Sequence record: LC788710.1
Origin: Escherichia coli phage Wa28
Reading direction: 5' to 3' (one strand)
DNA: 64,000 nt
The translations under genes and the position numbers were made by a program. Each line of letters opens with the position of its first letter. Positions within the stretch are counted from its first letter, which is position 1. This document shows, one piece after another, positions 17,615 to 63,965 of the stretch. Below the pieces are notes generated by a model, which saw only the letters and a program-made list of their open reading frames with translations, had not been told where the DNA came from and did no database searches.

Positions 17615-17628
17615 TTATTTTTCCCAAT

Positions 17629-17652: not shown

Positions 17653-17673
17653 TTATCGGCTGAAAAGCCTGTA

Positions 17674-19050: not shown

Positions 19051-19067
19051 TTTTAAATAATTCTCCG

Positions 19068-19700: not shown

Positions 19701-19703
19701 TTA

Positions 19704-21924: not shown

Positions 21925-21951
21925 CTGAGTAGTATCCCATCCTATACTTAT

Positions 21952-23268: not shown

Positions 23269-23750
23269 TATCTCTTACCTCCTCCTGCTAGAGCGGTAAT
23301 AAGATTCATATAGTTTTCGTCACCACTTCCAGCAATAATATTATTCTGAATATTAGTCTGGTTAGCCGGAGTACGGGCTGCTGCCTTCACTTTCTCCAGT
23401 TCTACCATCATTTTCATTTCTTCCATCTTCATCTTGTGCGCCTTCCAGAGAATATCCATGATATCCTGGTCAGAACCCATGCCAGTTTCTTCGAGTTCTT
23501 CCAACTTGCGCTTGATAACTTCATCAAGAACTCCGAATAAGCGGTCACGATTACGGAAGCCGCTTTCCATAAAGATATCGTTAAGATAGTTTTTAACTTC
23601 CCCACGATTCATTATATCACGGAATGCAATCTCGGACATTCCAAGACTACGAGCGGCGGCAGGAACATCACTACCGCACTGTAAATAGGCTTCAATAACA
23701 TCCATGCCTTCGGGAGACATGAGATCGGGAACTAATACATCATTTGCCAT
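23268..23750 (-). CDS. putative DNA-binding protein / small terminase candidate
   Basis: 160 aa; N-terminal HTH-like segment; adjacent to large terminase. Confidence 0.4.
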
Positions 23751-23760
23751 ATATCCTCCT

Positions 23761-25542
23761 TTAGGTTAGGCGTTGAACTGTTACACGTAGTCTTGGCAAG
23801 AAAACAGCTGCCGCTTCTGCAGCGTGAATGATAACACCCAACTCAACGTTGCCATTACCAAGGTTTTTAATAGTATAAATATATCCGTTCCTACGGAAAG
23901 CAAACTCATCAGGCCTACTAGCCCAAGTTTGTGTATAACTATAGGAAGTTGTACTGTGATAAGGTACTAGATATCCAGGTGGCAGAGTAAGAATCTGGTG
24001 GAATACACCATCACCAGCTGTATAACTTTGTTGACGTCTACCCTGTACCTGCCAAGCGCTACCGCCGTAAGTACGTACAGGCATTCCAGCAGTATTAAGA
24101 TTACCCATAATAACTTCAGTAGTTAATATAACAGTAGAGTGAGCATTTGGTAATCCCAACCAAACTGTGGCCAAAGGTGTGTAGAAGTCACCAGCACCAG
24201 GGTAGGATGGAGTTATATCGTCCCCTACATAAGTACTTGCAACGTTGCCTGGGAATAACCTGAGGGGTACAGTACTAGGACTCCACACAGGTCCATGTTC
24301 ATTACCAATGGAGTTGGTATTAGTATCTACATACCATTGTTTACCTACACCAAATTTATATAAGCTAATTTGAGAAGCTGCACCACCATAGTTAACAGGA
24401 GACCACAACCCGCCATTACTAGAGCCGATAAATTCACATCGTGCAGTATTATCACCAAAAACTCCGGTATACGCAGCGTTATTACCAACATACTCCATAT
24501 CAGGGCGATAGCCTAAGTTTCCGAAAGCATTCTGGTTAATAAATTTATAGCCTGTATTTGGTAGGCTAACACCTTTAATAGTAAAATTAGACGGAGATAT
24601 TAGGATATCTGAACCGGTAAATGGATTACCAGAAACTCCCATACTACCATTAGAATAGCGCAGATTTAGCACATACCAAATAACCTTAGTTGGCGTAACG
24701 TTATACCAGTCCTGTACATATACCTTTCTAGCAGACTGAGCAGCCATATTAGAAGTAGAACCTCTACAAACATATATTTTTTCTGGGTATGCAGGAGATT
24801 GGTAAAGAACGTTTACGTTATCTGGTAGTACGCCTTTTTTACCTGCGAAGCCACGAATATTAGAACTACAAACATAAAACCAATCATGGCCTCTACCAGC
24901 AGAACCAATAGGCGCCTGCCAGTTAGGTTCCCAATAATCTGCGTTACCACCATCTAAAGGAACAGTAGAGACACCAGTTGGAAAACCCATAAGACTCCAG
25001 GCTCTGGCAATGGCTTCACCAGCAGAAACACCACCAGGTCTAAAGATCTGGAAACCAGAGGACTGTAGTAAACTGCCTCCAGAACCTTGCCTAGCAATAG
25101 ATTCCTCATGACCAAGACCACCATTATAGATATAAGTACCATGAGCTAAACTATCACCGATCGCAAAAGCAGATGTTACAGATAATTCAGCACCAGCACG
25201 TGGTGGGTCTTCAAAGAATGATAAGAACTGGCCAACCTGAGATTGAGTACCATTCAGAAATCCACGATGAGTACCGTTTATCTCAATAGCAGTTAATATA
25301 ACTCTACCCGGATCATTGGATTTAATATTTATAATATCCCAAGGCATCTGAGTAACAAAGTATCCATTACCTGCATTACCTAGGGCTGCTTCATAAGTCC
25401 CATCAACTAGGACAAATGGCATATCTGAGTGGAAGATACTATTAGTATTTGGAGAGTAGTGCTGATTTATATCACCACCATTAGCAGCGTTTAGAGATAA
25501 TACAGTTTTACCATCACTAAATTTTCCTGCGAAAAAACTCAT
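23761..25542 (-). CDS. receptor-binding protein (pb5/Oad-like)
   Basis: 593 aa Gly/Asn/Ser-rich ORF located between terminase and a divergent llp-like lipoprotein gene. Confidence 0.55.
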
Positions 25543-25625
25543 ACAATCTCCTTCTTTAAAAATGTATTTGCTTAGATCCCTCTATTTTGCTATAATATAT
25601 TTATAAATTAAACAGAGGAACGATT

Positions 25626-25892
25626 ATGAAAAAGTTACTAGCCATCGTAGTTGCAGCAGTAGTGTTGACGGGTTGTGTGCCAGCTCCCGAGCCATTTTGT
25701 AAGGCATATGTGAAGTCTTATGGTCATGTTGGTGAAGAACACTACGCTTTAGATATTCGAGAAGCACGTACTGTGGGCTACCGATTCCCTAAAACTCAGT
25801 TACGCACTAAGTTTGGGTGGTGGGATTTGTCACAGTTTGATCTCAAATATGGTGATTGCAAATTTAAACTAGAACAATCTGGTCACTTGTAA
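25626..25892 (+). CDS. llp: Llp-like lytic-conversion lipoprotein (receptor-blocking superinfection exclusion)
   Basis: 88 aa; signal peptide with lipobox LTGC; divergent and adjacent to the RBP gene. Confidence 0.6.
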   Translation: MKKLLAIVVAAVVLTGCVPAPEPFCKAYVKSYGHVGEEHYALDIREARTVGYRFPKTQLRTKFGWWDLSQFDLKYGDCKFKLEQSGHL

Positions 25893-26170
25893 TTAGTATA
25901 AAGTAAAAAGATCTCGAAGTAAACAAAAATTTTTATTTCTGGGATGAGGTACAGGTAGCAAACACAATGCAAGATGAAGAAAAGTCCTTTCAGGAACCTG
26001 TTAACTTTGAAATAAATCCCAGGAATAAAAAGCAATACATGATGCAATTGATGAAATCATTCAAGACGTCATAGAAGATACAATAGAAGACGTGATGGGA
26101 ACATCCTTCTTACTAGAAGAATCCGGCTTCGACGAAGTAATGGATCTAATCGGGACAGTCGTAATGGTTC

Positions 26171-26356
26171 GTGCAATTGCTAGGGTATTCCAAATACCAA
26201 GACTATAGGAGAAGCAAAGAGATGTCAGACGACAACAGAAGAAAGAACAGACGCGGGGAAGTGTACGAAAGTTGGATAAATAGTTTCGGATTCGGGACTG
26301 TGTTATTCTTTATCTTTGTACTCTTTTGGTTAGCAGCTATGGCGGGGTGGTTATAA
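26171..26356 (+). CDS. small membrane protein
   Basis: 61 aa; C-terminal hydrophobic helix VLFFIFVLFWLAAMAGWL. Confidence 0.3.
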   Translation: MQLLGYSKYQDYRRSKEMSDDNRRKNRRGEVYESWINSFGFGTVLFFIFVLFWLAAMAGWL

Positions 26357-26459
26357 TGGAAGTAGTAATTATTACTTTACTAGTTGTGGTAATTATAGGG
26401 CAGTGTATTTTAGATAACCACTTAGCTCGTATTGAACGTAAGCTGCGGGGAGATAAATA

Positions 26460-26654
26460 ATGGATTGGTTAGGACTTATTACACTTGTAGTATGGATTGT
26501 CTGGATTGTTGGATACATGACGTCACATCGTAATCGTATACAGAAGCTAGAGGATAAAGTCACCCAACTAAACATTAATATGGATAAGTTACTGGACTCC
26601 CAACGTAATGATCGGGCGCGTATTCACCAACTTGAGAGGGAATTAGATGTTTAG
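26460..26654 (+). CDS. small membrane protein
   Basis: 64 aa; N-terminal TM helix then charged tail. Confidence 0.3.
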   Translation: MDWLGLITLVVWIVWIVGYMTSHRNRIQKLEDKVTQLNINMDKLLDSQRNDRARIHQLERELDV

Positions 26655-26892
26655 CTTTGTAGCTATCTTCATTATCGGAGTGCTTGCGGGGATCTTCGGA
26701 ACACTCGGGGCGATTAACAAGCATCGTGAATACGTTGCGGGAATATCGCGGGAGCTTTCGGAAAGGGAGCGGAGGTTTGCGGAGAAACGTGCGGAGTTTG
26801 AGCGGGAGTGGTCGGATGGATCTCGGGCGTCGCGGAGGAGATTTCGTATGTCAGAATCAGGAGACAAGCCGGTAGACCGGTGTTCCTCCTAA
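26647..26892 (+). CDS. small membrane-anchored Arg/Glu-rich protein (GC-rich ORF)
   Basis: 81 aa; N-terminal TM helix; DNA has GCGGAG hexamer repeats and locally elevated GC. Confidence 0.35.
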   Translation: MFSFVAIFIIGVLAGIFGTLGAINKHREYVAGISRELSERERRFAEKRAEFEREWSDGSRASRRRFRMSESGDKPVDRCSS

Positions 26893-27055
26893 GTTAGCGC
26901 TAATTACCAATTCTCGAAATCTCATAAGATTACACATGAAGGTGTGCCCAGAGGTTACCTAGATGAGAATGAGTCTCATTACCGCCCCGGTACTTAGCAA
27001 GCTAATAGTCACACTATGTGATGATAACATAGTGTGACTATTTTATTTTTAATTG

Positions 27056-27790
27056 TTAGGCGACTTTTAATTTATCAATGAATTGTTGCGGGCTGCAACT
27101 ATATTCTGCGCGTTCTTCCTCGGTCATACCTTCCCAACACATTTTTAAACGGTCGGCTAGGAATTGATAATCATTATCATCATCTAATGATTCATCAATA
27201 AAGGTTTCACCGATCAATGTTACGCCGATTGATAGGATATCATTAACGGCTTGAGCGTCCAGCGTTTTAAATCCAGCACTTGCCGCCGCCGATAATACGC
27301 CTTTATGATCATCAATCATCGTAAAATCAGCGTTCGGATATAACTGTTTAAACAGTTCAAAGTAATAGCTTTTGTATACAGCGTCTTTACTATGATATAT
27401 TTCGCTAACCTTATCCGCTTCAAAGTATTTGTGTAATGTATCGCGAGAGAATACGCGGATATTGCTATTTCCGCGCCCTCGCAAGCCTTGTTTACGCAAA
27501 TAAAAGTAATCGCTTTTAGACATAAGGCGCGCGGTACAAATAATATTTAAAGTATTTGCATCATTCATACATTGGCGCATATATTCAACCAATGGCAATA
27601 AAGAATCCTGCATAATTAAATCATGTTTACAGGCTTCGCGTGAATACTTATTTAAATTTAAATTCCCGTTATCATCAAAGCAAGGCGCTACACGGTGGAA
27701 AGAATTAATGATAGTTCCGTCTAAGTCCCAAATCATAACGCGGGAAATATGCGGGAAAGCGCGGGCAATATTCAAGGTTACTTGATTCAT
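27056..27790 (-). CDS. dmp: 5-prime deoxyribonucleotidase (Dmp-like, HAD superfamily)
   Basis: 244 aa; HAD motif I DLDGT near N-terminus; first gene of a pre-early-like block. Confidence 0.65.
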   Translation of the reverse strand: MNQVTLNIARAFPHISRVMIWDLDGTIINSFHRVAPCFDDNGNLNLNKYSREACKHDLIMQDSLLPLVEYMRQCMNDANTLNIICTARLMSKSDYFYLRKQGLRGRGNSNIRVFSRDTLHKYFEADKVSEIYHSKDAVYKSYYFELFKQLYPNADFTMIDDHKGVLSAAASAGFKTLDAQAVNDILSIGVTLIGETFIDESLDDDNDYQFLADRLKMCWEGMTEEERAEYSCSPQQFIDKLKVA

Positions 27791-27877
27791 TTGTTACATT
27801 CTCCATTTAAGGGATTTAGGTTAATTCAATCTTGCCAGCTAATTATATTGGATTAGCTGGCAATGTTCAATTAACTA

Positions 27878-28270
27878 TTAATTAGTGAGGCCATACGCTA
27901 GCGCGTCACCAATAAAGCTAATATCCTCACCATGTACGCTAGAACGAATCCCCGCGCAAGTGTAAACCATCGCGCTAGCTTCTGGATTGCAGACCGGACA
28001 CGGCTTAACAACTGCAAACGCTAGACCGGATTTAAGCGCATCAATAATAATTGTTTGCACTGTCAAAGTATCAGCGTAAACGCCTTTTGCTTTCGTATGG
28101 CTTGCCACTTTGCCGGTATCATAAGCAAAGGTAGTAACCTGCAAAGCGTCGTTATAATTCAGCAAATCAAAATTAACTTGCCCCGCCTCGACGTGATAAC
28201 GTTCACCATTAGAATAAACTAGAACGATGGAAGAAGTAGCACGATCAAAAGGAATGTTTTGGTTTTTCAT
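27878..28270 (-). CDS. hypothetical protein
   Basis: 130 aa ORF. Confidence 0.4.
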   Translation of the reverse strand: MKNQNIPFDRATSSIVLVYSNGERYHVEAGQVNFDLLNYNDALQVTTFAYDTGKVASHTKAKGVYADTLTVQTIIIDALKSGLAFAVVKPCPVCNPEASAMVYTCAGIRSSVHGEDISFIGDALAYGLTN

Positions 28271-28302
28271 GTTTATGACTCCAGATTATTTAATTACGGG
28301 AT

Positions 28303-28581
28303 TTATTGAAAAAATACATTTAAAGATAAATCAGTTTTACGAAAATATGTTTCGTCGCCGTCTTTCCTTTCTTGATTAAGGTAATCGCCTGTCATTACCT
28401 GAATATGATCTTTTTCGAAAAAGATCATATTTTCGCCAATATTACTATCCCATACGGCATACATTCCCGCGTACATTCCACGGGTAACTAAATAAACGCA
28501 ACTATCAAAAGACATTTCAGACCATGCAATATCTTCTAAACAATTGCTATCAGGGATAGATATATTAATTTTACTAGCCAT
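28303..28581 (-). CDS. hypothetical protein
   Basis: 92 aa ORF. Confidence 0.4.
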   Translation of the reverse strand: MASKINISIPDSNCLEDIAWSEMSFDSCVYLVTRGMYAGMYAVWDSNIGENMIFFEKDHIQVMTGDYLNQERKDGDETYFRKTDLSLNVFFQ

Positions 28582-28633
28582 TTAATAAACCTTTTATTAA
28601 TGGCGGTATATTTCAACCGCCGATTAAATTTAA

Positions 28634-30298
28634 TTATGCAAAGAATTTACCGTTTTTGAAATCAATCAAAGTACGTTGCCCGTTTGCATAGGTAATTAAA
28701 TGCGTTTGCGTCCAGCTTGACGCGCCCACGTTGTAGCCCATATCAAGGGAACCAGCAACGCCAGCGGTATAAACGCCGCCGTAAATGCTAGCCGTGTGAG
28801 TGTGACCAGTGTTAAGGCGTCCCAACTTTTTAAACTGCTTAGGATTGCCCCGACTGCCGTTAATGCCATTGTGACCATGTACGCCGCATTCAATGCCAGC
28901 GATTTTAAAGGACTGGTCAGTAGTCAAAAAAATGGCGTTAAATTCGCATCCTGCAACGTTTCTAAGCGCATAATCTAACACGTTAAAGGTATCATCCTTT
29001 TCAGCAATAGCGGCGTAAATCGCAGCGTTTAGACGGTGATACAGTTCCGCGTTTGCGGGATCATCTTTAATGTTTGCGTTACGATCATCTAACCAGCGGG
29101 ATAATGCTAAATCATGGTTAGATTCCACAATGATTGTTTGACTAAAATCACGTTCCATAGATTCTAATACGCGTCCAGTATCGATAAGATCATCAATAAC
29201 TTTATCACGTCCGGCGGCGTATTGTTTCGCAAGGAATACACCACTAGCGCGGTTATGATGGTTACGCGATGTAAAATCATGCACGTCATGAATAAATTGA
29301 TATTTCGGTTTAAGAATATCAAGCAAGCTGTTTTCACTAGCCCATGAAGCGACGGCGCAATCATCATCTAATTTTTCGGCGTGAATATCGCCATATTGCA
29401 AGCCTAGAACATGATCGGACGTTTCAAAACATCCGGTAGGCATAGCGCAAACATTCAAATCATAGAACATTCCGCTTTCATCCATTGTTTCAATCTGGCG
29501 AGCATAAAATTCGCCGTCGTCGTCGAACTCTACCAGCAAAGCGCCATAATTATGTAAAGCCTCAGCTTTTTGACCTGCTTTCTGCTGAATGTAGTTTTTA
29601 AGCGTAGCCGTTCCGGTTGAATACATACGGCACACTACTTCACCTTTTAACGCTGGCACACTTTCAGCGGTAATTTTAGCGTGACCAATTGCCAGACCTT
29701 CAATATTTAAAGCCGTGGCGGTTTCTGCGAATCCTGAAAGCGGGTAATCTGCCGTTGGTAAAACGTTAATTTCAGCCATGAAAGCAAAGCGGCGGTTATT
29801 TAAAAATACGTTTTTATCACAAACATATTTATCAAATGCGGGATCGTATTTAATACCGTTTGCCCCTTCCCCGTTCTGAAATCCGTTTTTGTTGTAAATG
29901 AATTTGCTAACAAGTAATTCAGCGCCGCAATATTCAGCGAATTTTTCCAGACTTGCTAAAAAGTTTTTATGCGGGAAAGTATTATTTTGAATCGACGTTA
30001 GAATAAAACGGCGACCGGACTTAACTTCCCATTGCTCAACGGTGCTAGAAACAATTCCCGCCGCCTCTGGGCGATCATCGTTTTTAATCGCCTTTTCGGC
30101 TTTTGCCGCTTTCGGTTTCGCTGGTTTATTTGCTTCCAGCCAGTCACAAATTGCGGTCGAATGTTTCGGCGTACCATAAACAGCTTTTGAAATATCGTCG
30201 CAAACTTCCAATTTAGTAGCGCGTAAACGCTTACCGTAGAAGTTAAAATCTGCGGCCATTTTCAAAATTTGAGCTTGTTTTTCTGCGGAAATATTCAT
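28634..30298 (-). CDS. A1: A1-like pre-early protein with metallophosphoesterase motifs
   Basis: 554 aa; GDIH and GHTH metallophosphatase-like motifs; synteny with dmp and A2-like gene. Confidence 0.6.
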   Translation of the reverse strand: MNISAEKQAQILKMAADFNFYGKRLRATKLEVCDDISKAVYGTPKHSTAICDWLEANKPAKPKAAKAEKAIKNDDRPEAAGIVSSTVEQWEVKSGRRFILTSIQNNTFPHKNFLASLEKFAEYCGAELLVSKFIYNKNGFQNGEGANGIKYDPAFDKYVCDKNVFLNNRRFAFMAEINVLPTADYPLSGFAETATALNIEGLAIGHAKITAESVPALKGEVVCRMYSTGTATLKNYIQQKAGQKAEALHNYGALLVEFDDDGEFYARQIETMDESGMFYDLNVCAMPTGCFETSDHVLGLQYGDIHAEKLDDDCAVASWASENSLLDILKPKYQFIHDVHDFTSRNHHNRASGVFLAKQYAAGRDKVIDDLIDTGRVLESMERDFSQTIIVESNHDLALSRWLDDRNANIKDDPANAELYHRLNAAIYAAIAEKDDTFNVLDYALRNVAGCEFNAIFLTTDQSFKIAGIECGVHGHNGINGSRGNPKQFKKLGRLNTGHTHTASIYGGVYTAGVAGSLDMGYNVGASSWTQTHLITYANGQRTLIDFKNGKFFA

Positions 30299-30406
30299 AA
30301 CTAAATCAACTCCTATAAAGGGATAAATATTAATACTGGCAATATTGCCAAATATAACGCCTTGCCTGAAGTGAGGACAATTTAAAAGGCGTTATAATTT
30401 GCAATA

Positions 30407-54062: not shown

Positions 54063-54458
54063 TTAGTCGTAAACCCACCATAACCCACGCTTACGCAGGT
54101 CATGATCACGGTTATAGTCATAATTTTCTGGATCTTTCAGTACACGGTGAAGTTCGCGACGGCTTCCCTGACGAACCATTTTGTTAGAATGCCACTTAAC
54201 ACTTCTGCTAATAGAATCCCACCAGTGTCCATCTTTCTTCTCGTTACGGATGATATTTTCCTGAATCTCCTTCTCAATTTCATCCCAAGTTTTAGCCCAT
54301 GCTTCATTGGAGCGAACTTGATAATATTTCCACTGCTTACCATCCCTATCCGTGTAGATATACGGAATACGGATATTAGTGCTATGAAAATTATAAGTAG
54401 AACGATGTGCAGCACGCCAGTGACGATCACCAGATTGTTTACGGTATGTACGGCTCAT
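54063..54458 (-). CDS. hypothetical basic protein
   Basis: 131 aa. Confidence 0.4.
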   Translation of the reverse strand: MSRTYRKQSGDRHWRAAHRSTYNFHSTNIRIPYIYTDRDGKQWKYYQVRSNEAWAKTWDEIEKEIQENIIRNEKKDGHWWDSISRSVKWHSNKMVRQGSRRELHRVLKDPENYDYNRDHDLRKRGLWWVYD

Positions 54459-54766: not shown

Positions 54767-55066
54767 TTAGATAATTTCTACAATATCCTGAGTTACAAAA
54801 CCGTCGAATTCATCAGAGATACCACCTGTAAAGGTGATGCCCATAATCATTGCATCCATCTTTTTAATCTCCGAGATTTTCATGCCTGCTTTACTATTCT
54901 TATAGTATTTGCGAGGATTCCCACACATCCAACAAGAACAGATGCAAGGAGTGGTAGTGATAATGCCTAACCGCTTAGGACTTTCTTCATGTGGGAAGAC
55001 TGTCCAATACTTTTTGCGATTGTTTTTCACACGTTGCCGGTGATGGCGTCTTAATGCTCGATCCAC
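54767..55066 (-). CDS. Cys-rich protein
   Basis: 99 aa; CICSCWMC. Confidence 0.35.
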   Translation of the reverse strand: MDRALRRHHRQRVKNNRKKYWTVFPHEESPKRLGIITTTPCICSCWMCGNPRKYYKNSKAGMKISEIKKMDAMIMGITFTGGISDEFDGFVTQDIVEII

Positions 55067-55147
55067 ACATTTCTCCTAAAACTTGGGAGATAAATGGAGT
55101 TTGCTCGACTACCTTGCGTAGTTGGTAGAAATCGTACCCAAACCCCA

Positions 55148-55516
55148 TTACATCGCCTGAGTAAATGTACGACTAATAACGTCGTTCTGTTGTTCACGCG
55201 TCAATGCGTTAAATCGAACAGCATAGCCAGAGACACGGATGGTCAACTGAGGATATTTTTCAGGATGTTTCTGTGCATCCAAAAGCTGATCACGGCTTAA
55301 CACATTGACATTTAGGTGCTGACCACCCTCGACTTGAGGAACCACTTCCACATCTACAATGCGAAAGGCCTCAGGGTCAAAGTGAGGTGTGATACCTTCT
55401 AGATCTTCGACTAGAACTTTCTGTTTAAGTTCACCATCTTTAGAATATAGTTGAATGATCTGATTGTTATGAACAATGTTAATTACGCCAGACTTAAGAC
55501 TTTGATATGCTTTCAT
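55148..55516 (-). CDS. autonomous glycyl radical cofactor (GrcA/YfiD-like)
   Basis: 122 aa; C-terminal glycyl-radical fingerprint [17 protein letters not shown]. Confidence 0.65.
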
Positions 55517-55881
55517 TAGATCTCCCTGATGTTAGAATTTGGCTCAGCTTTTTGTTAACCCAGAAGCAAGATAAAAACTGGAAGGCAGGCTTGCTTATTA
55601 AGTGAATACCCGATAATCGCTCGTAGTCCGGCTTGTGGATTGATAGTCCCATTCAGTTTAATAAGCACAGGAGCTTTGATTTTAACGTTGCGATCTTCCA
55701 GGTCTGTTGCAACTACGTGATTGCTCACGCTAAGACAATGGCTATCTAAAGTCTTAGCTTCTACATTTATACTCCTGGATAGCATGGAGTTGCAGTCTAC
55801 TTCCTGCTGTCACGCCCGGCCATTTATAGAATGTGGACTCTCTTCTCAGCAGGATCTGGTACAATGACCTGATCCTCTGTT

Positions 55882-55957
55882 TGGTAGTTAGTAGTGGATT
55901 TGAACCACTGTAGTCGCTCCGTATGAAGGAGGTGCATAACCACTCTGCCAACTAACT
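55882..55957 (-). tRNA. tRNA-Met/Ile2 (anticodon CAT)
   Basis: hand-folded cloverleaf; T-loop TTCAAAT; anticodon loop TTCATAC; CCA encoded. Confidence 0.6.
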
Positions 55958-55963
55958 ATAATT

Positions 55964-56039
55964 TGGTACTCCGACTTGGGATCGAACCAAGATTTGACGA
56001 TTATCGGTCGCCTGTTCTAACCGTTTGAACTATCGGAGC
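55964..56039 (-). tRNA. tRNA-Ile (anticodon GAT)
   Basis: cloverleaf; anticodon loop CCGATAA (C at position 33). Confidence 0.55.
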
Positions 56040-56040
56040 A

Positions 56041-56334
56041 TTACATCATTTCGTCTAAGTAAGAAGTATACTGGTATTTAGCTTCTCCAGTTTTATCTAC
56101 TTCGACTTCTGTTCTAGGTACTTTTCGTACCAGACCGTGAATCATCTTGTACTGAATAGACTTAGATGGTTCGTGATCTTTTGGAAATACTTGTTTAACC
56201 GTTACTACTTTGAAGCCTTCACGAGGTGTTAGCACAACAACTTGATCACCTTCTTTTATTTTCCAAGACTCAGGAAATTCGTAAGTGTAGCGTTGACCAC
56301 CCGTTTGGAACACGACAGAAAGATAACGTTTCAT
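56041..56334 (-). CDS. hypothetical protein
   Basis: 97 aa; promoter upstream. Confidence 0.4.
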   Translation of the reverse strand: MKRYLSVVFQTGGQRYTYEFPESWKIKEGDQVVVLTPREGFKVVTVKQVFPKDHEPSKSIQYKMIHGLVRKVPRTEVEVDKTGEAKYQYTSYLDEMM

Positions 56335-56363
56335 TTGGTTTCCCTCTCATTAATTTATGTAAA

Positions 56364-56392
56364 TATTATAACAAGAAATAAGAGAGAAGGCA
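56364..56392 (-). promoter_or_regulatory. T5-type sigma70 promoter (TTGCCT-17-TATAAT)
   Basis: conserved architecture. Confidence 0.55.
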
Positions 56393-56408
56393 AATGAATT
56401 TTTAAATT

Positions 56409-56483
56409 TGGTGCTCCCACCAGGAATCGAACCCGGTTCAGATGCTTACAAGGCAACTGCATCGCCAGCAATGCTTTAGGAGC
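56409..56483 (-). tRNA. tRNA-Thr (anticodon TGT)
   Basis: cloverleaf; anticodon loop CTTGTAA. Confidence 0.6.
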
Positions 56484-56650
56484 AATAAACCCGTTATTTC
56501 AACGGAATTTCTTTTTCAAATACAGGAGACTTATCAGACATTACTGTCATAGCCAACTGCTGTAGAAATTCGAATGAGAGTTTTAAACGTTCTTCACCCA
56601 ACTCAACCTCAACACACTTCATTTGCTTATCAACCTTTAGCTTTAGATTA

Positions 56651-56872
56651 TCAGCCCTCTTCGGGTTCTCTTTGCTCAGCTATTGCTAGCCAGTCTGGTA
56701 AAAGAAACTTAGTACGAAATTCTTCATATGTTTCTTCTGGATGAAAGCTATAGCCTTGCTTTTCATCATTTAATAAAACCGAACCGTCTTCCTGTTCATA
56801 AGCTCGGTATGTTTCACCAATAATTAAAACTCGTCTATTGGGGTTTTTATTACGAAACTCAAAAACGTCCAT
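56651..56872 (-). CDS. hypothetical protein
   Basis: 73 aa. Confidence 0.35.
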   Translation of the reverse strand: MDVFEFRNKNPNRRVLIIGETYRAYEQEDGSVLLNDEKQGYSFHPEETYEEFRTKFLLPDWLAIAEQREPEEG

Positions 56873-56887
56873 AACGTTTCCTTAAGT

Positions 56888-56962
56888 TGGTGCGGGATAC
56901 GAGAGTCGAACTCGTGTCTACTGGTTGGAAGCCAGTTATTCTAGCCACTGAACTAATCACGC
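56888..56962 (-). tRNA. tRNA-Gly (anticodon TCC)
   Basis: cloverleaf; anticodon loop CTTCCAA. Confidence 0.55.
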
Positions 56963-56968
56963 ATAAAT

Positions 56969-57044
56969 TGGCTGGAGAAGGAGGAATCGAACCTACCATT
57001 AACGGAGTCAAAGGCCGTTGTGCTAACCGTTACACTACTCTCCA
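56969..57044 (-). tRNA. tRNA-Gln (anticodon TTG)
   Basis: cloverleaf; anticodon loop CTTTGAC. Confidence 0.55.
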
Positions 57045-57050
57045 AGTATT

Positions 57051-57126
57051 TGGCTGGGATGCCACGGATCGAACGTGGAACCTTCGGAGTCAGAGGCCGA
57101 CGATCTGCCAATTGATCTACATCCCA
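57051..57126 (-). tRNA. tRNA-Gln (anticodon CTG)
   Basis: cloverleaf with perfect acceptor stem; anticodon loop CTCTGAC. Confidence 0.6.
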
Positions 57127-57133
57127 ATAATTT

Positions 57134-57334
57134 TTATTCTACAGGAACCGTGGCAATTGGATCTGGTTCTTCTAGACGTTTACCATTATGGTCAACACGA
57201 ATAATACCACAACCTTCACAGATTACAACAGCACCATAGCCTTCTTTAACTTCGGCTTCTGTAATCAGACCAGAAAGATCACCAGTATCTTTGCCCCACA
57301 TATCGATAGAGCATTCTTTGCAGAAATCAGCCAT
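57134..57334 (-). CDS. zinc-ribbon protein
   Basis: 66 aa; CKEC...CEGC. Confidence 0.35.
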   Translation of the reverse strand: MADFCKECSIDMWGKDTGDLSGLITEAEVKEGYGAVVICEGCGIIRVDHNGKRLEEPDPIATVPVE

Positions 57335-57358
57335 ATTTTAGTTCCTGTATAAGTTAAT

Positions 57359-57433
57359 TGGTGCATCCTCAGGGAATCGAACCCCGATCGTAAAGTTCGT
57401 AGCTTTACATTCTTTCCGTTGAAATAAGGACGC
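57359..57433 (-). tRNA. tRNA-Arg (anticodon ACG)
   Basis: cloverleaf; anticodon loop CTACGAA. Confidence 0.55.
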
Positions 57434-57438
57434 ATATT

Positions 57439-57515
57439 TGGGGTGGCTAGTGGAATTCGAATCCACATAGGCCTGATTCACAATCAGGATCATTAACCAA
57501 TTATGATATAGCCAC
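57439..57515 (-). tRNA. tRNA-His (anticodon GTG)
   Basis: cloverleaf; anticodon loop TTGTGAA; perfect acceptor. Confidence 0.65.
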
Positions 57516-57896
57516 AATTGAATACTATTAGGGGATGATCAGTCCTCCATTTGGCCGTCTAAGGTACCAAAGTTAGTCATTCTGCGCACAGGTTTTTCTC
57601 CTGATTCTTTATTGCGAATGCTCTCTAATAATACTCAATTGTGGCGGCTCTCCGAAACTCTTCTACTCTAGCCTTAGCAGCTTACTCCCGAACGCATGTC
57701 GGGAAAGTCTTACTAAGAACATCAAATAGCACCGTTACACTTTGAGCCATTAATGTATCAAGAAGCAGAAGGACTTGAACCTTCACGAGATAGACCATTT
57801 ATCTCAGCCTCGTTTTCGGGTATCTTATGAGGAGTGGATGTTCCCCTTACGCCCTTTAGGAAGCCCCGTCTACCGATTCCGGCATACTTCAAGATT

Positions 57897-57986
57897 TGGC
57901 AGAAGATAATGGAGTCGAACCATCACCGTATCACTACAGCGGGCCGGTTTTCAAGACCGGTTACGTACCACTACGTCCTATCTTCT
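57897..57986 (-). tRNA. tRNA-Ser (anticodon TGA), class II
   Basis: 90 nt; anticodon arm CCGGT-CTTGAAA-ACCGG; long variable arm. Confidence 0.6.
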
Positions 57987-58213
57987 AGTATTTGTTCTAC
58001 TTCTTTTCGAAGATCTTCTGGATTATCATGATAGGTTGTTTGCCATACATAAATAACTCCAGTATCACATGCTTTATCAAATATTTCTCGCTCAGGAAGT
58101 TTCATGCCCATTGCGTACTTGATATGAAACTCTAAAGCTTGCTTACTAGGGAATGTATGACGCAAGAAAAACTTATCATTAACTAAATCCAACATCATAA
58201 TCTTGACTTTCAT
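57971..58213 (-). CDS. hypothetical protein
   Basis: 80 aa; 3-prime end overlaps tRNA-Ser. Confidence 0.35.
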   Translation of the reverse strand: MKVKIMMLDLVNDKFFLRHTFPSKQALEFHIKYAMGMKLPEREIFDKACDTGVIYVWQTTYHDNPEDLRKEVEQILEDRT

Positions 58214-58233
58214 TTATATTCCCTATTAGTTGT

Positions 58234-58326
58234 TTGGCGGAAGAAGAGAGATTCGAACTCTCAAGCCTGCTTTAACAAGTCAGCCACTTTCCAAGCGGTT
58301 TTCGTCACCTAATCGATTTGCTCTTC
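58234..58326 (-). tRNA. tRNA-Ser (anticodon GGA), class II
   Basis: 93 nt; T-arm GAGAG-TTCGAAT-CTCTC; anticodon loop TTGGAAA; fold less certain. Confidence 0.45.
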
Positions 58327-58501
58327 CGTAGATCTCAGGATTAAATCATAAACTTCATTAGCAGATACTGGAAGTATGAGATTATACATCTTTTGGTCAT
58401 ACCTCTGACCATACTCTATAAACACATACTCTTTAGTTAATGTATTAACAGCTAACCAGATATCAGTTATAGGAGTTTTCATCATGAGTTAATCCAATGT
58501 T

Positions 58502-58582
58502 TGGTAGGGATGGAGGGACTCGAACCCACACCCGAAGACTAGAACCTAAATCTAGCGCGTCTGCCAATTTCGCCACATCCCC
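58502..58582 (-). tRNA. tRNA-Leu (anticodon TAG), class II
   Basis: 81 nt; anticodon arm CTAGA-TTTAGGT-TCTAG. Confidence 0.55.
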
Positions 58583-58589
58583 ATTTTAT

Positions 58590-58808
58590 TTAGTTAGAAA
58601 TAAATAGTAACCCTGCAACAATGGAACCTATGCCACTGAATACCATTATCAGCATAGCTTCTAAGCTGATAAAGCGGACGTTATATGGAGCGCCCCAAGA
58701 ATAATCAGTAAAGAAAGTTTTCTTTTCTTTAGCTAAATCTTTAATAGTTCTAAAATAGATAGCTAGTGCTAAAGCTACAAGAACTACAGAGGCTGCTAAG
58801 AATACCAT
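58590..58808 (-). CDS. small membrane protein
   Basis: 72 aa, two TM helices. Confidence 0.35.
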   Translation of the reverse strand: MVFLAASVVLVALALAIYFRTIKDLAKEKKTFFTDYSWGAPYNVRFISLEAMLIMVFSGIGSIVAGLLFISN

Positions 58809-58827
58809 ATTATTTCCTTAATTTGTT

Positions 58828-58903
58828 TGGTGGAGTCACTCAGAATTGAACTGAGTTCCACTGCTTGCAAGGCAGTAAGTTTAACCAAATAACCTATGAC
58901 CCC
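58828..58903 (-). tRNA. tRNA-Ala (anticodon TGC)
   Basis: cloverleaf; G3:U70 wobble; anticodon loop CTTGCAA. Confidence 0.65.
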
Positions 58904-58908
58904 GAATT

Positions 58909-58987
58909 TGGTGGAGAATAAGAGATTCGAACTCTTCTGATATCCTCGGTGCAAGCGAGGTGTCCACTCCAAGCAGACCCATTCCCC
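58909..58987 (-). tRNA. tRNA-Ala-like (anticodon TGC), atypical
   Basis: 79 nt; G3:U70; anticodon loop CTTGCAC; G8G9 and 7-nt variable loop are non-canonical. Confidence 0.45.
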
Positions 58988-58996
58988 AAAATCTTT

Positions 58997-59225
58997 AAGT
59001 TTACTAAGGCTATTAGCTCGGTGTGCGTATTACCCTCAGACATTAGCCAGTAGAGGATAACCGCTCTTCACAAACCCGATACACTATTCAGTTGCCGCTG
59101 AATCTAGTGGACTAATCTAGAACTTATTGCAAAGTATCCCCCGCCATTAAGGGTCTACTTGCAATTGTGCTTTTTGGCAGCCAGTCCTAGGTCGAGCTAA
59201 TACCTTAGTGAACTTTGATGAGGAT
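58997..59225 (-). ncRNA. candidate structured RNA (~230 nt) closed by a ~24-bp terminal helix
   Basis: 58997-59022 pairs with 59200-59225 (2 mismatches); no ORF; promoter at 59250-59278 fires into it; leader hairpin GATGAGGA-gaaa-TCCTCATC. Confidence 0.35.
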
Positions 59226-59249
59226 TTCTCCTCATCAATTTATATAAAT

Positions 59250-59278
59250 ATTATAACAAGAAATTAAGCATCAAGCAA
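59250..59278 (-). promoter_or_regulatory. T5-type sigma70 promoter (TTGCTT-17-TATAAT) driving structured RNA and downstream tRNAs
   Basis: conserved architecture; -35 overlaps stop of upstream ORF. Confidence 0.6.
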
Positions 59279-59630
59279 GTACATTTTTAGCGATTTCTTG
59301 TATTTCCTTAACGTCACTAACGAAAAGGTAATCAGAGCTTCCAGAGTGCATACTCTGCATAACCACACCATCCTCTGGTGCATCTTCTTTCAAAGTAATA
59401 CCTAACCAGAACTCGGCAAAACTAGGTGTTACCTCACCTTGACTTGCCTTGAATACATCGGCTTCTGTGATCTCCTGACCAGTAGAGAGTCCCATGTACG
59501 GTACGTTCAGATCAATATCTTTGTAAAACTCAGCTAGATCTTGTTCGAAGTCCCAACCTTTAGAGATAGCGAACTCCATTGTTACATGACCGAAATAGCC
59601 TTGAACCTTGCTTGATAATTGCATTTGCAA
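59271..59630 (-). CDS. hypothetical acidic protein
   Basis: 119 aa. Confidence 0.4.
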   Translation of the reverse strand: MQMQLSSKVQGYFGHVTMEFAISKGWDFEQDLAEFYKDIDLNVPYMGLSTGQEITEADVFKASQGEVTPSFAEFWLGITLKEDAPEDGVVMQSMHSGSSDYLFVSDVKEIQEIAKNVLA

Positions 59631-59648
59631 TTCCTTATTTTGAGTTAA

Positions 59649-59722
59649 TTGGTACTCGGTGATAGAATCGAACTATCGCAACCGCCGTGTAAAGACGGGG
59701 TTCTCCCATTAAACTAACCGAG
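59649..59722 (-). tRNA. tRNA-Val (anticodon TAC)
   Basis: cloverleaf; anticodon loop TTTACAC. Confidence 0.55.
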
Positions 59723-59726
59723 CAAT

Positions 59727-59804
59727 TTGGTGGATTGCCTGGGATTCGAACCCAGAACTGACGGATTAAAGGTCCGCTACTCTTATCCGGTTGAGCTAGC
59801 AATC
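59727..59804 (-). tRNA. tRNA-Lys (anticodon TTT), C33 variant
   Basis: cloverleaf with perfect acceptor; anticodon loop CCTTTAA. Confidence 0.5.
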
Positions 59805-60269
59805 CAATTTTTCTACTAATAATTTAAAAGCATCTAGTACAGGTACTTCAAACCATTCCCCGGATACTCTGTAGTCTTTGAGAAGATTATGTAACTCTTT
59901 CTCCGTACGTCTTTTATCTGACGAAAATCTGAAATGGTGTAGCTTGTAGTCTCTATTAGGTGAATAGGTTTGATAACTTGCTAACCTCTCATTTACATCT
60001 ATAGTCATACCTATTTTATACATGCCTGGCCATGCGGGATTACCGATTACATATACAAAACCTTCCGTTATAGGTATTTTATGTTCTCTTTTGTATTTTA
60101 AGAGATTTAAAGCTGCCATTCGATAACAGAATTTAAATTCTGAAGTTTTTAACTTACCCTCTTTACCAGAAATTTCATTATATTTGCTCATATAAGCTCT
60201 TATAAGCTTATCATCTATAATAAAATTATCAGGAAGGTTTAAGGCAGCTAAAACTTTATTAATTAGCAT
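59796..60269 (-). CDS. T5orf172-domain (GIY-YIG-like) putative homing endonuclease
   Basis: 157 aa; VYVIGNPAWPGMYKIGMT...YQTYSP motif; paralog of 63369-63860. Confidence 0.55.
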   Translation of the reverse strand: MLINKVLAALNLPDNFIIDDKLIRAYMSKYNEISGKEGKLKTSEFKFCYRMAALNLLKYKREHKIPITEGFVYVIGNPAWPGMYKIGMTIDVNERLASYQTYSPNRDYKLHHFRFSSDKRRTEKELHNLLKDYRVSGEWFEVPVLDAFKLLVEKLDC

Positions 60270-60444
60270 AAACTTCCTTAATAGAGTAGACTTTCAAGTA
60301 AGGATGATTAATACCAAATTCCGCCATTACTTCATTTTCATCTTTACCATAATGGGCTAGTGGATACTTCTTACGATCTTTACTAGAACGTAAATCACTT
60401 ACTTTTAAACGAAATAATTTCATTTCGAAATCCTTCTATTAAAT

Positions 60445-60522
60445 TGGAAGCGGGTGCAGGAATCGAACCTACCTCTTTCTAGCTTATGAGACTAGCGATC
60501 TCTACCAGAGATCTAACCCGCA
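60445..60522 (-). tRNA. tRNA with CAT anticodon (Met/fMet/Ile2), 1:72 mismatch
   Basis: cloverleaf; anticodon loop CTCATAA; unpaired first acceptor pair. Confidence 0.5.
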
Positions 60523-60528
60523 ATTGTT

Positions 60529-60606
60529 TGGTCTCCGTGGGAGGATTTGAACCCCCGACCCTATCGCCCCAAACGAAACGCTCTAGCCAAACTGAGCTAC
60601 ACGGAG
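60529..60606 (-). tRNA. tRNA-Pro (anticodon TGG)
   Basis: cloverleaf; perfect acceptor; anticodon loop TTTGGGG (G37). Confidence 0.6.
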
Positions 60607-60638
60607 AATATTCTTTGTTAACTCACTTTATAAAATAT

Positions 60639-60667
60639 ATTATACAGAGAATTAAGCTAAATAGCAA
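60639..60667 (-). promoter_or_regulatory. T5-type sigma70 promoter (TTGCTA-17-TATAAT) upstream of tRNA-Pro
   Basis: conserved architecture. Confidence 0.6.
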
Positions 60668-60921
60668 CTACATTTTTTAATAAATTTACTTATTGCGTAG
60701 GCCACCTGGAGGGTTCAAGCCCCACGGCTGACAAAGAAGTTTGCGAGACTTCTCTTAAACGCCAGAATAGACCCGCCGATCTATCGGAACCTACTCAATA
60801 AGTAAACTTTCGTTTACCTACACCTACCTGGTCGGGAGGATTTTCAGCGACTAGAACCGGCCGGAAACTCATCGCCTTGTTTATCTAGGAGTCCGTTCTC
60901 TAGGAAGCAGAAACCTAAATT

Positions 60922-60995
60922 TGGTGCGGTCGGAGGGAATCGAACCCTCAACTTCTGGTTGGCAACCAAAAATTATACCTTTTAACTACGAACGC
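60922..60995 (-). tRNA. tRNA-Gly (anticodon GCC)
   Basis: cloverleaf; anticodon loop TTGCCAA. Confidence 0.55.
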
Positions 60996-61005
60996 ATAAT
61001 AAGTC

Positions 61006-61126
61006 AATCTAGGCAGGACTTGAACCTGCTATCACTTGTGCGGATTTACGAGAACCATTCTTTCACTCGAATCGAACGAGCTTCTACCCTCGGCAAGCTG
61101 GTGTCCCCTCTCCACCACGCTAGAAT
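61006..61126 (-). other. tRNA-like element (~121 nt) with perfect T-arm but no standard cloverleaf
   Basis: T-arm GCAGG-TTCAAGT-CCTGC at 61013-61029; acceptor-like pairing only to 61120-61126. Confidence 0.25.
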
Positions 61127-61208
61127 GATAATTAGTGCCTGCTCCTTTGAATCAAGAAGTCCACCCCGGACTTTGGGTCTTTGCAGTACATCACGCTGCT
61201 CTGATGTT

Positions 61209-61285
61209 TGGTACACCCACTAGGACTTGAACCTAGAACCTACCGCTTAAGAGGCGGTAGCTCTAACCAATTGAGCTATGGATGT
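61209..61285 (-). tRNA. tRNA-Lys (anticodon CTT)
   Basis: cloverleaf; D-arm GCTCAATTGGTTAGAGC; anticodon arm ACCGC-CTCTTAA-GCGGT. Confidence 0.65.
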
Positions 61286-61291
61286 ATAATT

Positions 61292-61366
61292 TGGCGGTAC
61301 TAAGGGTAATCGAAACCCTACCTCTCCCGTGACAGGGGAGTATCCTAACCGTTAGACTATAGTACC
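61292..61366 (-). tRNA. tRNA-Asp (anticodon GTC)
   Basis: cloverleaf; anticodon arm CTCCC-CTGTCAC-GGGAG; perfect acceptor. Confidence 0.65.
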
Positions 61367-61938
61367 TTTAACTTTTTAAGTTCTTTAGGATTGCCTCCTA
61401 AAGAAGTGTATCTTTTACGCAACCCATTATCTGAATAACTTAACTTTCTCCCTGCACCTGACCAGCCTAGCTCTCTTACTGTAACCTCGATTATTTCTTT
61501 AGTTATAGAGATATCTTTTGGTTTATGTGAAGAGCACTCCTGACATTTTTCAGCTTTTAAAGAAATAGCTTTACCACAATCCTTACAACAATTATCATGG
61601 TTTAGTTTACTAAATCCTTTATCTTTTAAAGTCTTTTCTAGATGCTGCTCTTTTGTGAGCACTTGTAAGTTATTAAGACCCCAATAAGTAATGTCTGTGT
61701 TAATATGGTCAACTTCTAGTTCAGAGTCTAGACTTGGTAATTTCTTAAATGCACATGCTAAAATCCTATGTACACCGGTATTTCTCTGTTGACCATTTTT
61801 ATGGAGACGTATAGATAAGTATCCGTAATTACTGGTTATTTGGGTTAGTATTTTGTTTGATTTGATACTAAATACTAACCCATCCAAACTTACTAAGTAC
61901 TCCTCAAACCCTGGAATGGGTAAGGATATTCCGTGCAT
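61357..61938 (-). CDS. HNH homing endonuclease
   Basis: 193 aa; GVHRILA...EVDHIN...NNLQVLTKEQH HNH motif plus C-terminal Cys cluster. Confidence 0.6.
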   Translation of the reverse strand: MHGISLPIPGFEEYLVSLDGLVFSIKSNKILTQITSNYGYLSIRLHKNGQQRNTGVHRILACAFKKLPSLDSELEVDHINTDITYWGLNNLQVLTKEQHLEKTLKDKGFSKLNHDNCCKDCGKAISLKAEKCQECSSHKPKDISITKEIIEVTVRELGWSGAGRKLSYSDNGLRKRYTSLGGNPKELKKLKVL

Positions 61939-61941
61939 AAT

Positions 61942-62127
61942 TTACTCAGTTTTGAGTTTTTCGATAGCTTCCTCAACCTCTTTTAGAGCTTCACGACGCT
62001 CTACTTGACCTTGAAGTTCTTCAAGAAGTTCAGCTTTCAGAGCCTTAATAATATTACCACGAACCTTAATATTATTAATCAGATTATCACGATCAGCTTC
62101 TAGTCGAGCAATTGCACGAGTTGTCAT
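61942..62127 (-). CDS. small coiled-coil protein
   Basis: 61 aa. Confidence 0.3.
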   Translation of the reverse strand: MTTRAIARLEADRDNLINNIKVRGNIIKALKAELLEELQGQVERREALKEVEEAIEKLKTE

Positions 62128-62230
62128 ATCTATTTCCTCAGTTGTTAATGAAAAATGGTATCTGTGACTGAATTCGATATCAGCAATGATAGCTGGTTGG
62201 CTACCGGTTTACTTAACTCTACACAGAATA

Positions 62231-62313
62231 TGGCGGGCCGTGTAGGATTCGAACCTACGTTGTCTTTCGACATGGATTAACAGTCCACCGCCAAACCGCT
62301 TGGCTAACGACCC
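62231..62313 (-). tRNA. tRNA-Asn (anticodon GTT) with unusually long 13-nt variable arm
   Basis: 83 nt; anticodon arm GGACTGTTAATCC; extra arm GTC-gaaa-GAC. Confidence 0.55.
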
Positions 62314-62320
62314 TAAAATT

Positions 62321-62396
62321 TGGACGACCGCATGAGATTCGAACTCACATAAGGAGGTTTTGCAGGCCTCCGCCTAAGCCATTCAGCCAACGGTCG
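62321..62396 (-). tRNA. tRNA-Cys (anticodon GCA)
   Basis: cloverleaf; anticodon loop CTGCAAA. Confidence 0.6.
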
Positions 62397-62574
62397 ATTT
62401 ATCTTGCTTTTCGAGATTAGTAAACTCTAGATCTTTAGAATGTCCTATAGATCTAGCATAATAGCCATCTCCAGCATCGTAGCCTGATTTACCGCACTCA
62501 CACATCTTAAACTCTCTATAATGAGTGAAAATATGTTCAGAACCACAACACTTAAATTTAACTAACATTTTCAT
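62383..62574 (-). CDS. small zinc-ribbon protein
   Basis: 63 aa; CCGSEH...CECGKS. Confidence 0.3.
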   Translation of the reverse strand: MKMLVKFKCCGSEHIFTHYREFKMCECGKSGYDAGDGYYARSIGHSKDLEFTNLEKQDKSTVG

Positions 62575-62813
62575 TTAACACGCTCCGGTAAATCTTCGAG
62601 TTTATATTGAGTAGCCACATTAGCAGCATCTAGTAACAAACCCATATGTTTAAGAATCCTAGTGATAGCCTCGCCTTCTGCTTCTTCTACAAAAGTGCGT
62701 AGTTGAATGAAGTCAATACCCCCATCCATACCAGAGAAAATGTTTAGTAAGCGAAGCATTACCAGCTTACGTTCTTTCAATTCTTGTTCTGTCATGTTGC
62801 TTCTCCAGTTCAA
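62571..62813 (-). CDS. hypothetical protein
   Basis: 80 aa; promoter upstream. Confidence 0.35.
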   Translation of the reverse strand: MNWRSNMTEQELKERKLVMLRLLNIFSGMDGGIDFIQLRTFVEEAEGEAITRILKHMGLLLDAANVATQYKLEDLPERVK

Positions 62814-62824
62814 TTTATGTAATA

Positions 62825-62853
62825 ATTATACAGAACTTTAAGCGGTTAAGCAA
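62825..62853 (-). promoter_or_regulatory. T5-type sigma70 promoter (TTGCTT-17-TATAAT)
   Basis: conserved architecture. Confidence 0.6.
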
Positions 62854-63124
62854 CTACATTTTTTAAGAATTTGATGCCTTTCTTTTTCTTCTTATATTTC
62901 CACGTTAACGGGTTCTGTCGATTATGAACGCTTGAGATCTTTGTCTCGTCAAAGTTCTTCAAAACCATGTAATCACAGGCCAACTGTTCTAGTGGGATGT
63001 GATCTCCATCAAAAGCATAAACATAAGGCTGTTGACTAGCACGATAATGATAGACTTTGTTAATTCTGCGTTTCAGTGACTTATCCGCACAGTAAATAAA
63101 GAAGTTTTCAGGATGCATCAGCAT
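62846..63124 (-). CDS. hypothetical protein
   Basis: 92 aa. Confidence 0.35.
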   Translation of the reverse strand: MLMHPENFFIYCADKSLKRRINKVYHYRASQQPYVYAFDGDHIPLEQLACDYMVLKNFDETKISSVHNRQNPLTWKYKKKKKGIKFLKNVVA

Positions 63125-63135
63125 CTCCTTAAAAT

Positions 63136-63210
63136 TGGTGCACCCTGTTCGTATCGAACGAACCTCTCAAGCTCTTCAGGCAAGCGCTAATCCATCTCAG
63201 CTAAAGGTGC
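63136..63210 (-). tRNA. tRNA-Phe (anticodon GAA), weak anticodon stem
   Basis: cloverleaf; anticodon loop CTGAAGA; two U-U mismatches in anticodon stem. Confidence 0.45.
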
Positions 63211-63216
63211 AAATAT

Positions 63217-63293
63217 TGGCAAACCTACTAGGACTCGAACCTAGACCGTACGGTTTTGGAGACCGACATGCTGTCCAGTAACACTCTAGGAAT
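63217..63293 (-). tRNA. tRNA-Trp (anticodon CCA), mismatched acceptor
   Basis: anticodon loop CTCCAAA and T-loop TTCGAGT as in enterobacterial tRNA-Trp; two U-U mismatches in acceptor. Confidence 0.45.
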
Positions 63294-63301
63294 GCAGAAA
63301 T

Positions 63302-63378
63302 TGGCGTCCTGTGCGGGGATCGAACCCGCAAACCCCACCTTGAAAGGGTGGTGACTTTACCAGTTTGTCTAACAGGAC
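63302..63378 (-). tRNA. tRNA-Glu (anticodon TTC)
   Basis: perfect acceptor; anticodon arm CCACC-CTTTCAA-GGTGG. Confidence 0.65.
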
Positions 63379-63860
63379 TTAAATTGTTTATTGGATAGAT
63401 TGTTAAACTCGGAAAGTATGTCGTCTACACTTCTGTCTAACACTACCCATTCATTAAGCCGTTCAGGAAAGCTATTATGAAGCATTTTCTCCGCTTCTCT
63501 AGCATTAAACCAAAATGACCAATGTATTAACTTATAATCACGTAAGGGAGAATAAGTTTGGTAATTTCCTAATCTTGTTTTAGGATCAGAAGACATACCA
63601 ATTTTTACATAGTTATCCCACGCTGGGTTAGTTATTGCATAAATAAAACCACAGCTGGATTTTTCTCCAATACTTTTGTTATACTTGATAAAAGATAGGG
63701 CAGATAACTTCAAGCTATATCGACGATTACTATCGCGACCAAAGTTAGCTGTACCAAATGTGAGGCTTTCTAATATTAGATCTTTGTTTATATCGGCGGG
63801 TGAACCCAACTGTATAATACCTCTATTTGCAGCTTCTTGAATTATCCGATCAATATACAT
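63369..63860 (-). CDS. T5orf172-domain (GIY-YIG-like) putative homing endonuclease
   Basis: 163 aa; FIYAITNPAWDNYVKIGMS...YQTYSP motif; paralog of 59796-60269. Confidence 0.55.
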   Translation of the reverse strand: MYIDRIIQEAANRGIIQLGSPADINKDLILESLTFGTANFGRDSNRRYSLKLSALSFIKYNKSIGEKSSCGFIYAITNPAWDNYVKIGMSSDPKTRLGNYQTYSPLRDYKLIHWSFWFNAREAEKMLHNSFPERLNEWVVLDRSVDDILSEFNNLSNKQFKSC

Positions 63861-63877
63861 ATCCTTTACCTTTAATT

Positions 63878-63965
63878 TGGTGGGCGTTAATGGAGTCGAA
63901 CCACTCGAGTCGCAATGACCAGGGATTTACAATCCCCTCCGCTACCACTTACGGAATAAACGCCC
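63878..63965 (-). tRNA. tRNA-Tyr (anticodon GTA), class II
   Basis: 88 nt; perfect acceptor; anticodon loop TTGTAAA. Confidence 0.6.

Follow-up and report, generated by a model that had tools for sequence, protein, structure and literature searches.

Why does a T5-like phage carry, at the downstream end of its tRNA genes, a small protein that resembles the C terminus of host pyruvate formate-lyase (PFL), and what would this protein do in an infected cell? We addressed this question in a 64,000-nucleotide stretch of Escherichia coli phage Wa28 (LC788710.1), hereafter called the window. The initial annotation had claimed a 122-amino acid open reading frame without giving its strand; the list of open reading frames contains it as a complete coding sequence at 55148..55516 on the minus strand, with an ATG start and a TAA stop. 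A Shine-Dalgarno sequence, GGGAG, can be read at 55522..55526 (minus strand), 5 nt before the ATG, and is kept or nearly kept (GGGAG, GGAG, or AGGAG) in T5_ev219, SuperGirl, and T5 st0. A consensus scan for promoters and terminators gave nothing exceeding the shuffle expectation. The product is a small standalone protein of 122 residues without the catalytic barrel of PFL, and it matches the profile of the phage GrcA-like proteins, PHROG 1209, over its full length (E = 4.2e-47, with residues 1-122 aligned to all 121 profile positions, 1-121). GenBank contains a 100% identical protein (P0001, phage Wa28/NBSal002).

Similarity to known proteins is concentrated in the C-terminal half. The glycyl-radical domain comprises residues 61-122 (55151..55336, minus strand), equivalent to residues 698-759 of PflB and 66-127 of GrcA. 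From the translation, the glycyl-radical fingerprint occupies residues 94-110 (55187..55237, minus strand), and the radical glycine is G97 (55226..55228, minus strand). The earlier statement that the protein ends with this fingerprint was right about its presence but not about its position, as 12 residues come after it before the end of the protein. Pfam PF01228 (Gly_radical) matched residues 62-103 with 66.3 bits, compared with a gathering threshold of 22.2 (E = 4e-18). The best match to a solved structure was E. coli GrcA/YfiD (PDB entry 6owr, E = 2e-29, residues 50-121), and residues 61-122 aligned with residues 698-759 of the PFL structure 1h16 (E = 8e-27). Pairwise alignment with E. coli GrcA/YfiD covered about residues 50-122 at 74% identity (E = 8e-38); over the 62 residues of the radical domain, the identity is 79% to GrcA and 77% to PflB. 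The sequence RVSGYAV is intact and agrees exactly with the radical-glycine sites of PflB and GrcA. In a set of 36 homologues from phages and bacteria, V100 is the sole variable position in the segments P89-F102 and R94-N103 (at least 90% conserved), and the positions onward to F118 are mostly invariant too. In the AlphaFold2 (AF2) model, the C-terminal half superposes on PFL 2pfl with an rmsd of 2.4 Å over 50 columns and also on the NMR structure of YfiD (6owr). At the level of sequence, these data confirmed a glycyl-radical match far beyond chance. Both parts of the original proposal, a GrcA/YfiD-like protein and a PFL-like C terminus, were upheld by alignments that extend far beyond the short motif.

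The phage of origin was also correctly described. Over 3 kb surrounding the gene, the sequence shares 98.7% identity with E. coli phage Shin27 and 96-98% with many Salmonella and Escherichia phages of the genus Epseptimavirus (Demerecviridae, Markadamsvirinae). The placement of the gene next to the tRNA cluster is shared with T5, T5_ev219, and SuperGirl, and the designation as a T5-like phage is therefore correct. According to ARAGORN, the GrcA-like gene forms the downstream end of a series of 25 co-directional tRNA genes on the minus strand, directly after tRNA-Ile and tRNA-Met, an arrangement common to T5 st0, T5_ev219, and SuperGirl. The last gene of the cluster, tRNA-Met, lies upstream of the GrcA-like gene at 55882..55957 on the minus strand (ARAGORN and Rfam), a position that marks the latter as part of the predicted early tRNA-region transcription unit. 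The spacer between this tRNA and the start codon (55517..55881) is an indel hot spot. It measures 365 nt in the window and is longer than in T5 st0 (13 nt); SuperGirl has about 180 nt, and T5_ev219 has about 275 nt of differing sequence with a small open reading frame. With Rfam, the spacer and its flanks yielded tRNAs only, and the extra ~190 nt of the spacer had no match.

The neighboring genes provided no functional linkage, as a Pfam scan of ten neighboring small open reading frames returned only DUF7295 and noise. The DUF7295 match (E = 4e-57, full length) belongs to a 131-amino acid protein encoded three genes downstream at 54063..54458 on the minus strand, a conserved phage protein of unknown function. 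Directly adjacent to the GrcA-like gene is a 53-amino acid open reading frame (54987..55148, minus strand) whose start codon overlaps the stop of the GrcA-like gene (TAATG), an arrangement suggestive of translational coupling. In SuperGirl, it is annotated as bas29_0136; Pfam gave no match for it, and it overlaps a 99-amino acid open reading frame (54767..55066) with a Cys-rich PCICSCWMCGNPRKY element. On a larger scale, the window begins with a late structural module (1..30300) of large minus-strand open reading frames, one of which, of 1,236 amino acids, was taken as the tape measure by size only; early genes follow, and then the cluster of 25 tRNAs (55882..63965). From this order, the assembly is permuted relative to the standard T5 map.

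Genes of this type are widespread. A tblastn search yielded 1,583 phage records with the protein, and the hosts of almost all these phages are facultative anaerobes such as Escherichia, Salmonella, Klebsiella, Shigella, Aeromonas, and Yersinia. About 440 T5-like records contain it at 80% identity or higher, which is almost every one of the 453 in which the region occurs. In the T5 st0 record, T5p055 is described as a "pyruvate formate-lyase related protein" with a glycine radical motif (PF01228) and as an acid-induced glycyl radical enzyme (COG3445). In Markadamsvirinae, T5p055 and its orthologues (PHROG 1209) have the same length of 122 residues and the same position directly downstream of the tRNA-Met/tRNA-Ile end; the window protein is 91% identical to that of T5 and differs by few substitutions, mostly in the N-terminal half. 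Elsewhere, depositors named the product PFL-related protein, "pyruvate formate-lyase," "glycyl radical cofactor," or "autonomous glycyl radical cofactor GrcA," and some labeled the gene "2-ketobutyrate formate-lyase"; the labels "ribonucleotide reductase subunit" and "acetyltransferase-related protein" are wrong. The gene is thus already known: its annotation dates back to the earliest T5 genomes and recurs in hundreds of relatives, and biochemical work on the T4 member has validated the family. Our literature search found no paper on the T5-like protein itself.

How closely does the protein as a whole correspond to bacterial GrcA? Like E. coli GrcA/YfiD (6OWR; TIGR04365), it is small and standalone and consists of an N-terminal half, a linker, and a radical domain. 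The two differ in the linker before EGGQHLN, which is 2 residues shorter in the phage protein, and in the tail, which reads TQAM, as in PflB, rather than TESL. With PflB it has in common the identical loop and the LLDA and TQxM elements, but it is the radical-bearing module only and lacks the catalytic barrel that carries C418/C419. The most diverged part is the phage-type N-terminal half, residues 1-60 (55337..55516, minus strand), of which the first 50 residues could not be aligned directly with GrcA. Accordingly, all three GrcA profiles scored below their cut-offs and matched the C-terminal part only: TIGR04365 (GrcA equivalog) with 119 bits compared with 170 (residues 54-122), NF038360 (GrcA3) with 116.5 bits compared with 158 (residues 63-122), and NF008341 (GrcA2) with 90.4 bits compared with 145 (residues 62-121).

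Direct hhalign comparison of the T5-like N-terminal half with bacterial GrcA N-terminal halves gave no significant match (probability 2%). The T5-like half did match those of T4 and jumbo phages (E = 2e-5 over 28 columns), which in turn matched bacterial GrcA (E = 9e-8 over 52 columns). Because the link runs through the proteins of T4-like and jumbo phages, the T5-like N-terminal half is likely homologous to that of bacterial GrcA, but by transitivity only. A search for a fold match of this half in the PDB found none. AF2 predicted four or five β-strands in it, with a pLDDT around 80. We considered whether a folded N-terminal domain sets the phage protein apart from YfiD and rejected this idea, as a control prediction for a bacterial GrcA (Pantoea, P0099) gave the same strands. 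The predicted β-rich half therefore does not distinguish the phage protein from bacterial GrcA, even though NMR shows the corresponding half of YfiD to be disordered in solution (PMC8683613). The N-terminal ~50 residues of YfiD are needed for binding of cleaved PFL and for efficient activation (PMC8683613); the β-rich model may represent a conformation taken up on binding.

A homologue in T4 had been mentioned in the initial annotation, and we could identify it as Vs.6, that is Y06I, for which PMC8683613 cites Wagner et al. 2001. It is 51% identical to the window protein over the full length. The two proteins share the MKAYQ start and a DPE.F element in the N-terminal half, the identical radical loop, and the dependence on host PflA and PflB, whereas residues 8-35 differ substantially. 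According to the account of Wagner et al. 2001 in PMC8683613, both Y06I and YfiD are radicalized by the PFL activase (PFL-AE) and restore oxygen-cleaved PFL; a 2026 review also describes this spare-part work.

The position of the gene in an indel-rich tRNA region and the resemblance of its C-terminal half to host genes raise the question of whether it is merely a captured, non-functional 3' fragment of host pflB or grcA in a dispensable region. At the nucleotide level, the radical domain shares 71-74% identity with each of E. coli grcA, pflB, and T4 vs.6, and third codon positions are 47-53% identical to grcA and pflB. With about half of the third positions matching, these values indicate an old phage lineage, and we rejected a recent capture from the host. 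The dN/dS ratio of the whole coding sequence, relative to T5 and SuperGirl, is 0.06-0.08; among T5-like phages, it is 0.06-0.10 for the N-terminal half and 0.03-0.04 for the C-terminal half, at dS values of 0.2-1.2. Both halves are under strong purifying selection, which rules out a decaying fragment. The intact reading frame with its Shine-Dalgarno site, the low dN/dS at a dS reaching 0.3-0.8, the retention of the gene in about 440 T5-like genomes, including the deletion mutant T5 st0, and the lack of recent host-identical DNA likewise speak against such a remnant, and we regard it as extremely improbable.

A functional radical module needs an activase and an enzyme to act on. A tblastn search with E. 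coli PflA, E. coli PflB, and T5-like NrdD revealed neither an activase nor a PFL body or second PFL-like sequence, whether in the window or in 50 kb of the close relative faergetype; the protein must accordingly rely on PflA and PflB of the host. Both are available, as all 5426 E. coli genomes had pflB/grcA-type matches, and pflA adjoins pflB. Related T5-like phages encode a second glycyl-radical protein, NrdD, the oxygen-sensitive class III anaerobic ribonucleotide reductase; an NrdD-like gene is present in faergetype (L007:22387-24261), and about 390 records contain it at 80% identity or higher. No NrdG/PflA-type activase was detected in the 50 kb of faergetype or in the window, and both phage glycyl-radical proteins would consequently depend on host activases. 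The presence of NrdD in relatives is consistent with a lifestyle that includes anoxic infection.

It also raises the possibility that the GrcA-like protein is a spare part for a glycyl-radical enzyme other than PflB, such as phage NrdD, which is equally oxygen-sensitive, or host TdcE. The depositor labels "ribonucleotide reductase subunit" and "2-ketobutyrate formate-lyase" would fit such targets, and spare parts for further glycyl-radical enzymes have been speculated on in the literature (PMC8683613). However, the NrdD of faergetype ends in ...CPICGN...RRVCGYLG, in a zinc-ribbon context, and gave no tblastn match to the GrcA-like gene; this unrelated radical loop argues against NrdD as the target. 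The radical domain, moreover, shares 77-79% identity with PflB and GrcA, whereas its scores against other glycyl-radical enzymes are at most 50 bits. TdcE is a close paralogue of PflB and might be rescued along with it, yet by the same mechanism. We therefore consider a target other than PflB very unlikely.

Together, these data make it likely that the protein is a spare part of the GrcA/Y06I type for host PFL, by analogy with the biochemistry of YfiD and Y06I. This reading draws on the homology, the intact RVSGYAV, the matching fold, the full-length kinship with the T4 protein, the purifying selection, the wide retention in phages of facultative anaerobes, the host-supplied PflA and PflB, and the occurrence of NrdD in relatives. 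The undetectable direct similarity of the N-terminal half, the sub-cut-off GrcA scores, and the uninformative neighbors weigh against it. By the same analogy, its most likely role would be to keep host PFL active in microaerobic infection, and we infer that T5-like phages would in this way manipulate host anaerobic metabolism, as had been suggested from the sequence at the outset.

In an E. coli or Salmonella host under the fluctuating low-oxygen conditions of the gut, the gene would be transcribed together with the early tRNA-region genes, and the C-terminal 62 residues of its product would mimic the glycyl-radical domain of host PFL. As for YfiD and Y06I, host PflA, a radical-SAM activase, would install the radical on G97, and the activated protein would dock into PflB that oxygen has cut in its own radical domain at G734 or that is inactive for another reason. 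Passage of the radical to C419 would then restore the formation of acetyl-CoA and formate, and fermentative carbon and ATP supply could persist while the host cannot replace its damaged PflB.

The same components could in principle serve the opposite purpose. A protein that soaks up PflA, or that fills the radical-domain site of intact PflB/TdcE, would lower or redirect fermentation, for example formate production. Its phage-specific N-terminal half differs from that of bacterial GrcA, its perfectly conserved RVSGYAV would compete for PflA, and GrcA also acts on full-length, uncleaved PflB in vivo (PMC12338860), so the phage protein probably reaches the intact enzyme. Such a decoy, though, would not need the whole 62-residue domain maintained at a dN/dS of ~0.03, including PFL-fitting residues beyond the activase-binding loop, and the T4 homologue with the same phage-type N terminus restores PFL activity in vitro, as described in PMC8683613. 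We consider throttling of the host enzyme quite unlikely, and repair of host PFL remains our preferred reading.

A spare part of this kind is a textbook-type auxiliary metabolic gene. Its presence suggests an adaptation of T5-like phages infecting E. coli and Salmonella to hosts that ferment at the oxic/anoxic boundary in the gut, and NrdD points in the same direction; such context is of use in phage therapy and in gut ecology. Databases and the literature already cover the gene, its family, and its likely mechanism, and our finding is a confirmation rather than a discovery. What remains of interest is the part played by the N-terminal half, which is diverged yet under constraint. We think it unlikely, but worth stating, that this half has been retuned in T5-like phages, such that the protein engages intact or inactive PflB/TdcE or monopolizes PflA; if so, host pyruvate flux would be under phage control, beyond the repair of oxygen damage.

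A hint that the N-terminal half carries a phage-specific function comes from T4, as this phage appears to have swapped the C-terminal domain alone and kept the phage N-terminal half. The last 185 nt of T4 vs.6 (L003:5558-5742, minus strand), which begin at the EGGQHLN codons and run through the stop, share 98% nucleotide identity with E. coli K-12 grcA (L002), and the similarity stops sharply at the start of the domain and at the stop codon. T4 thus seems to have undergone a recent exchange with the host gene that was confined to the radical domain and left a phage-type N-terminal half in place. The window gene shows no such exchange with host grcA, its radical domain being equidistant from grcA and pflB. 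A different type of composite was seen in six proteins of 127 amino acids (P0116, P0117, P0072, P0092, P0093, and P0107), in which a GrcA N-terminal half is combined with a PflB-type C-terminal tail (...MNREMLLDAMENPEKYPQ...KEQQQDVITRTFTQSM). All six come from short Logan/ENA contigs, and they represent either enterobacterial grcA-pflB gene conversion or assembly chimeras across the shared repeat.
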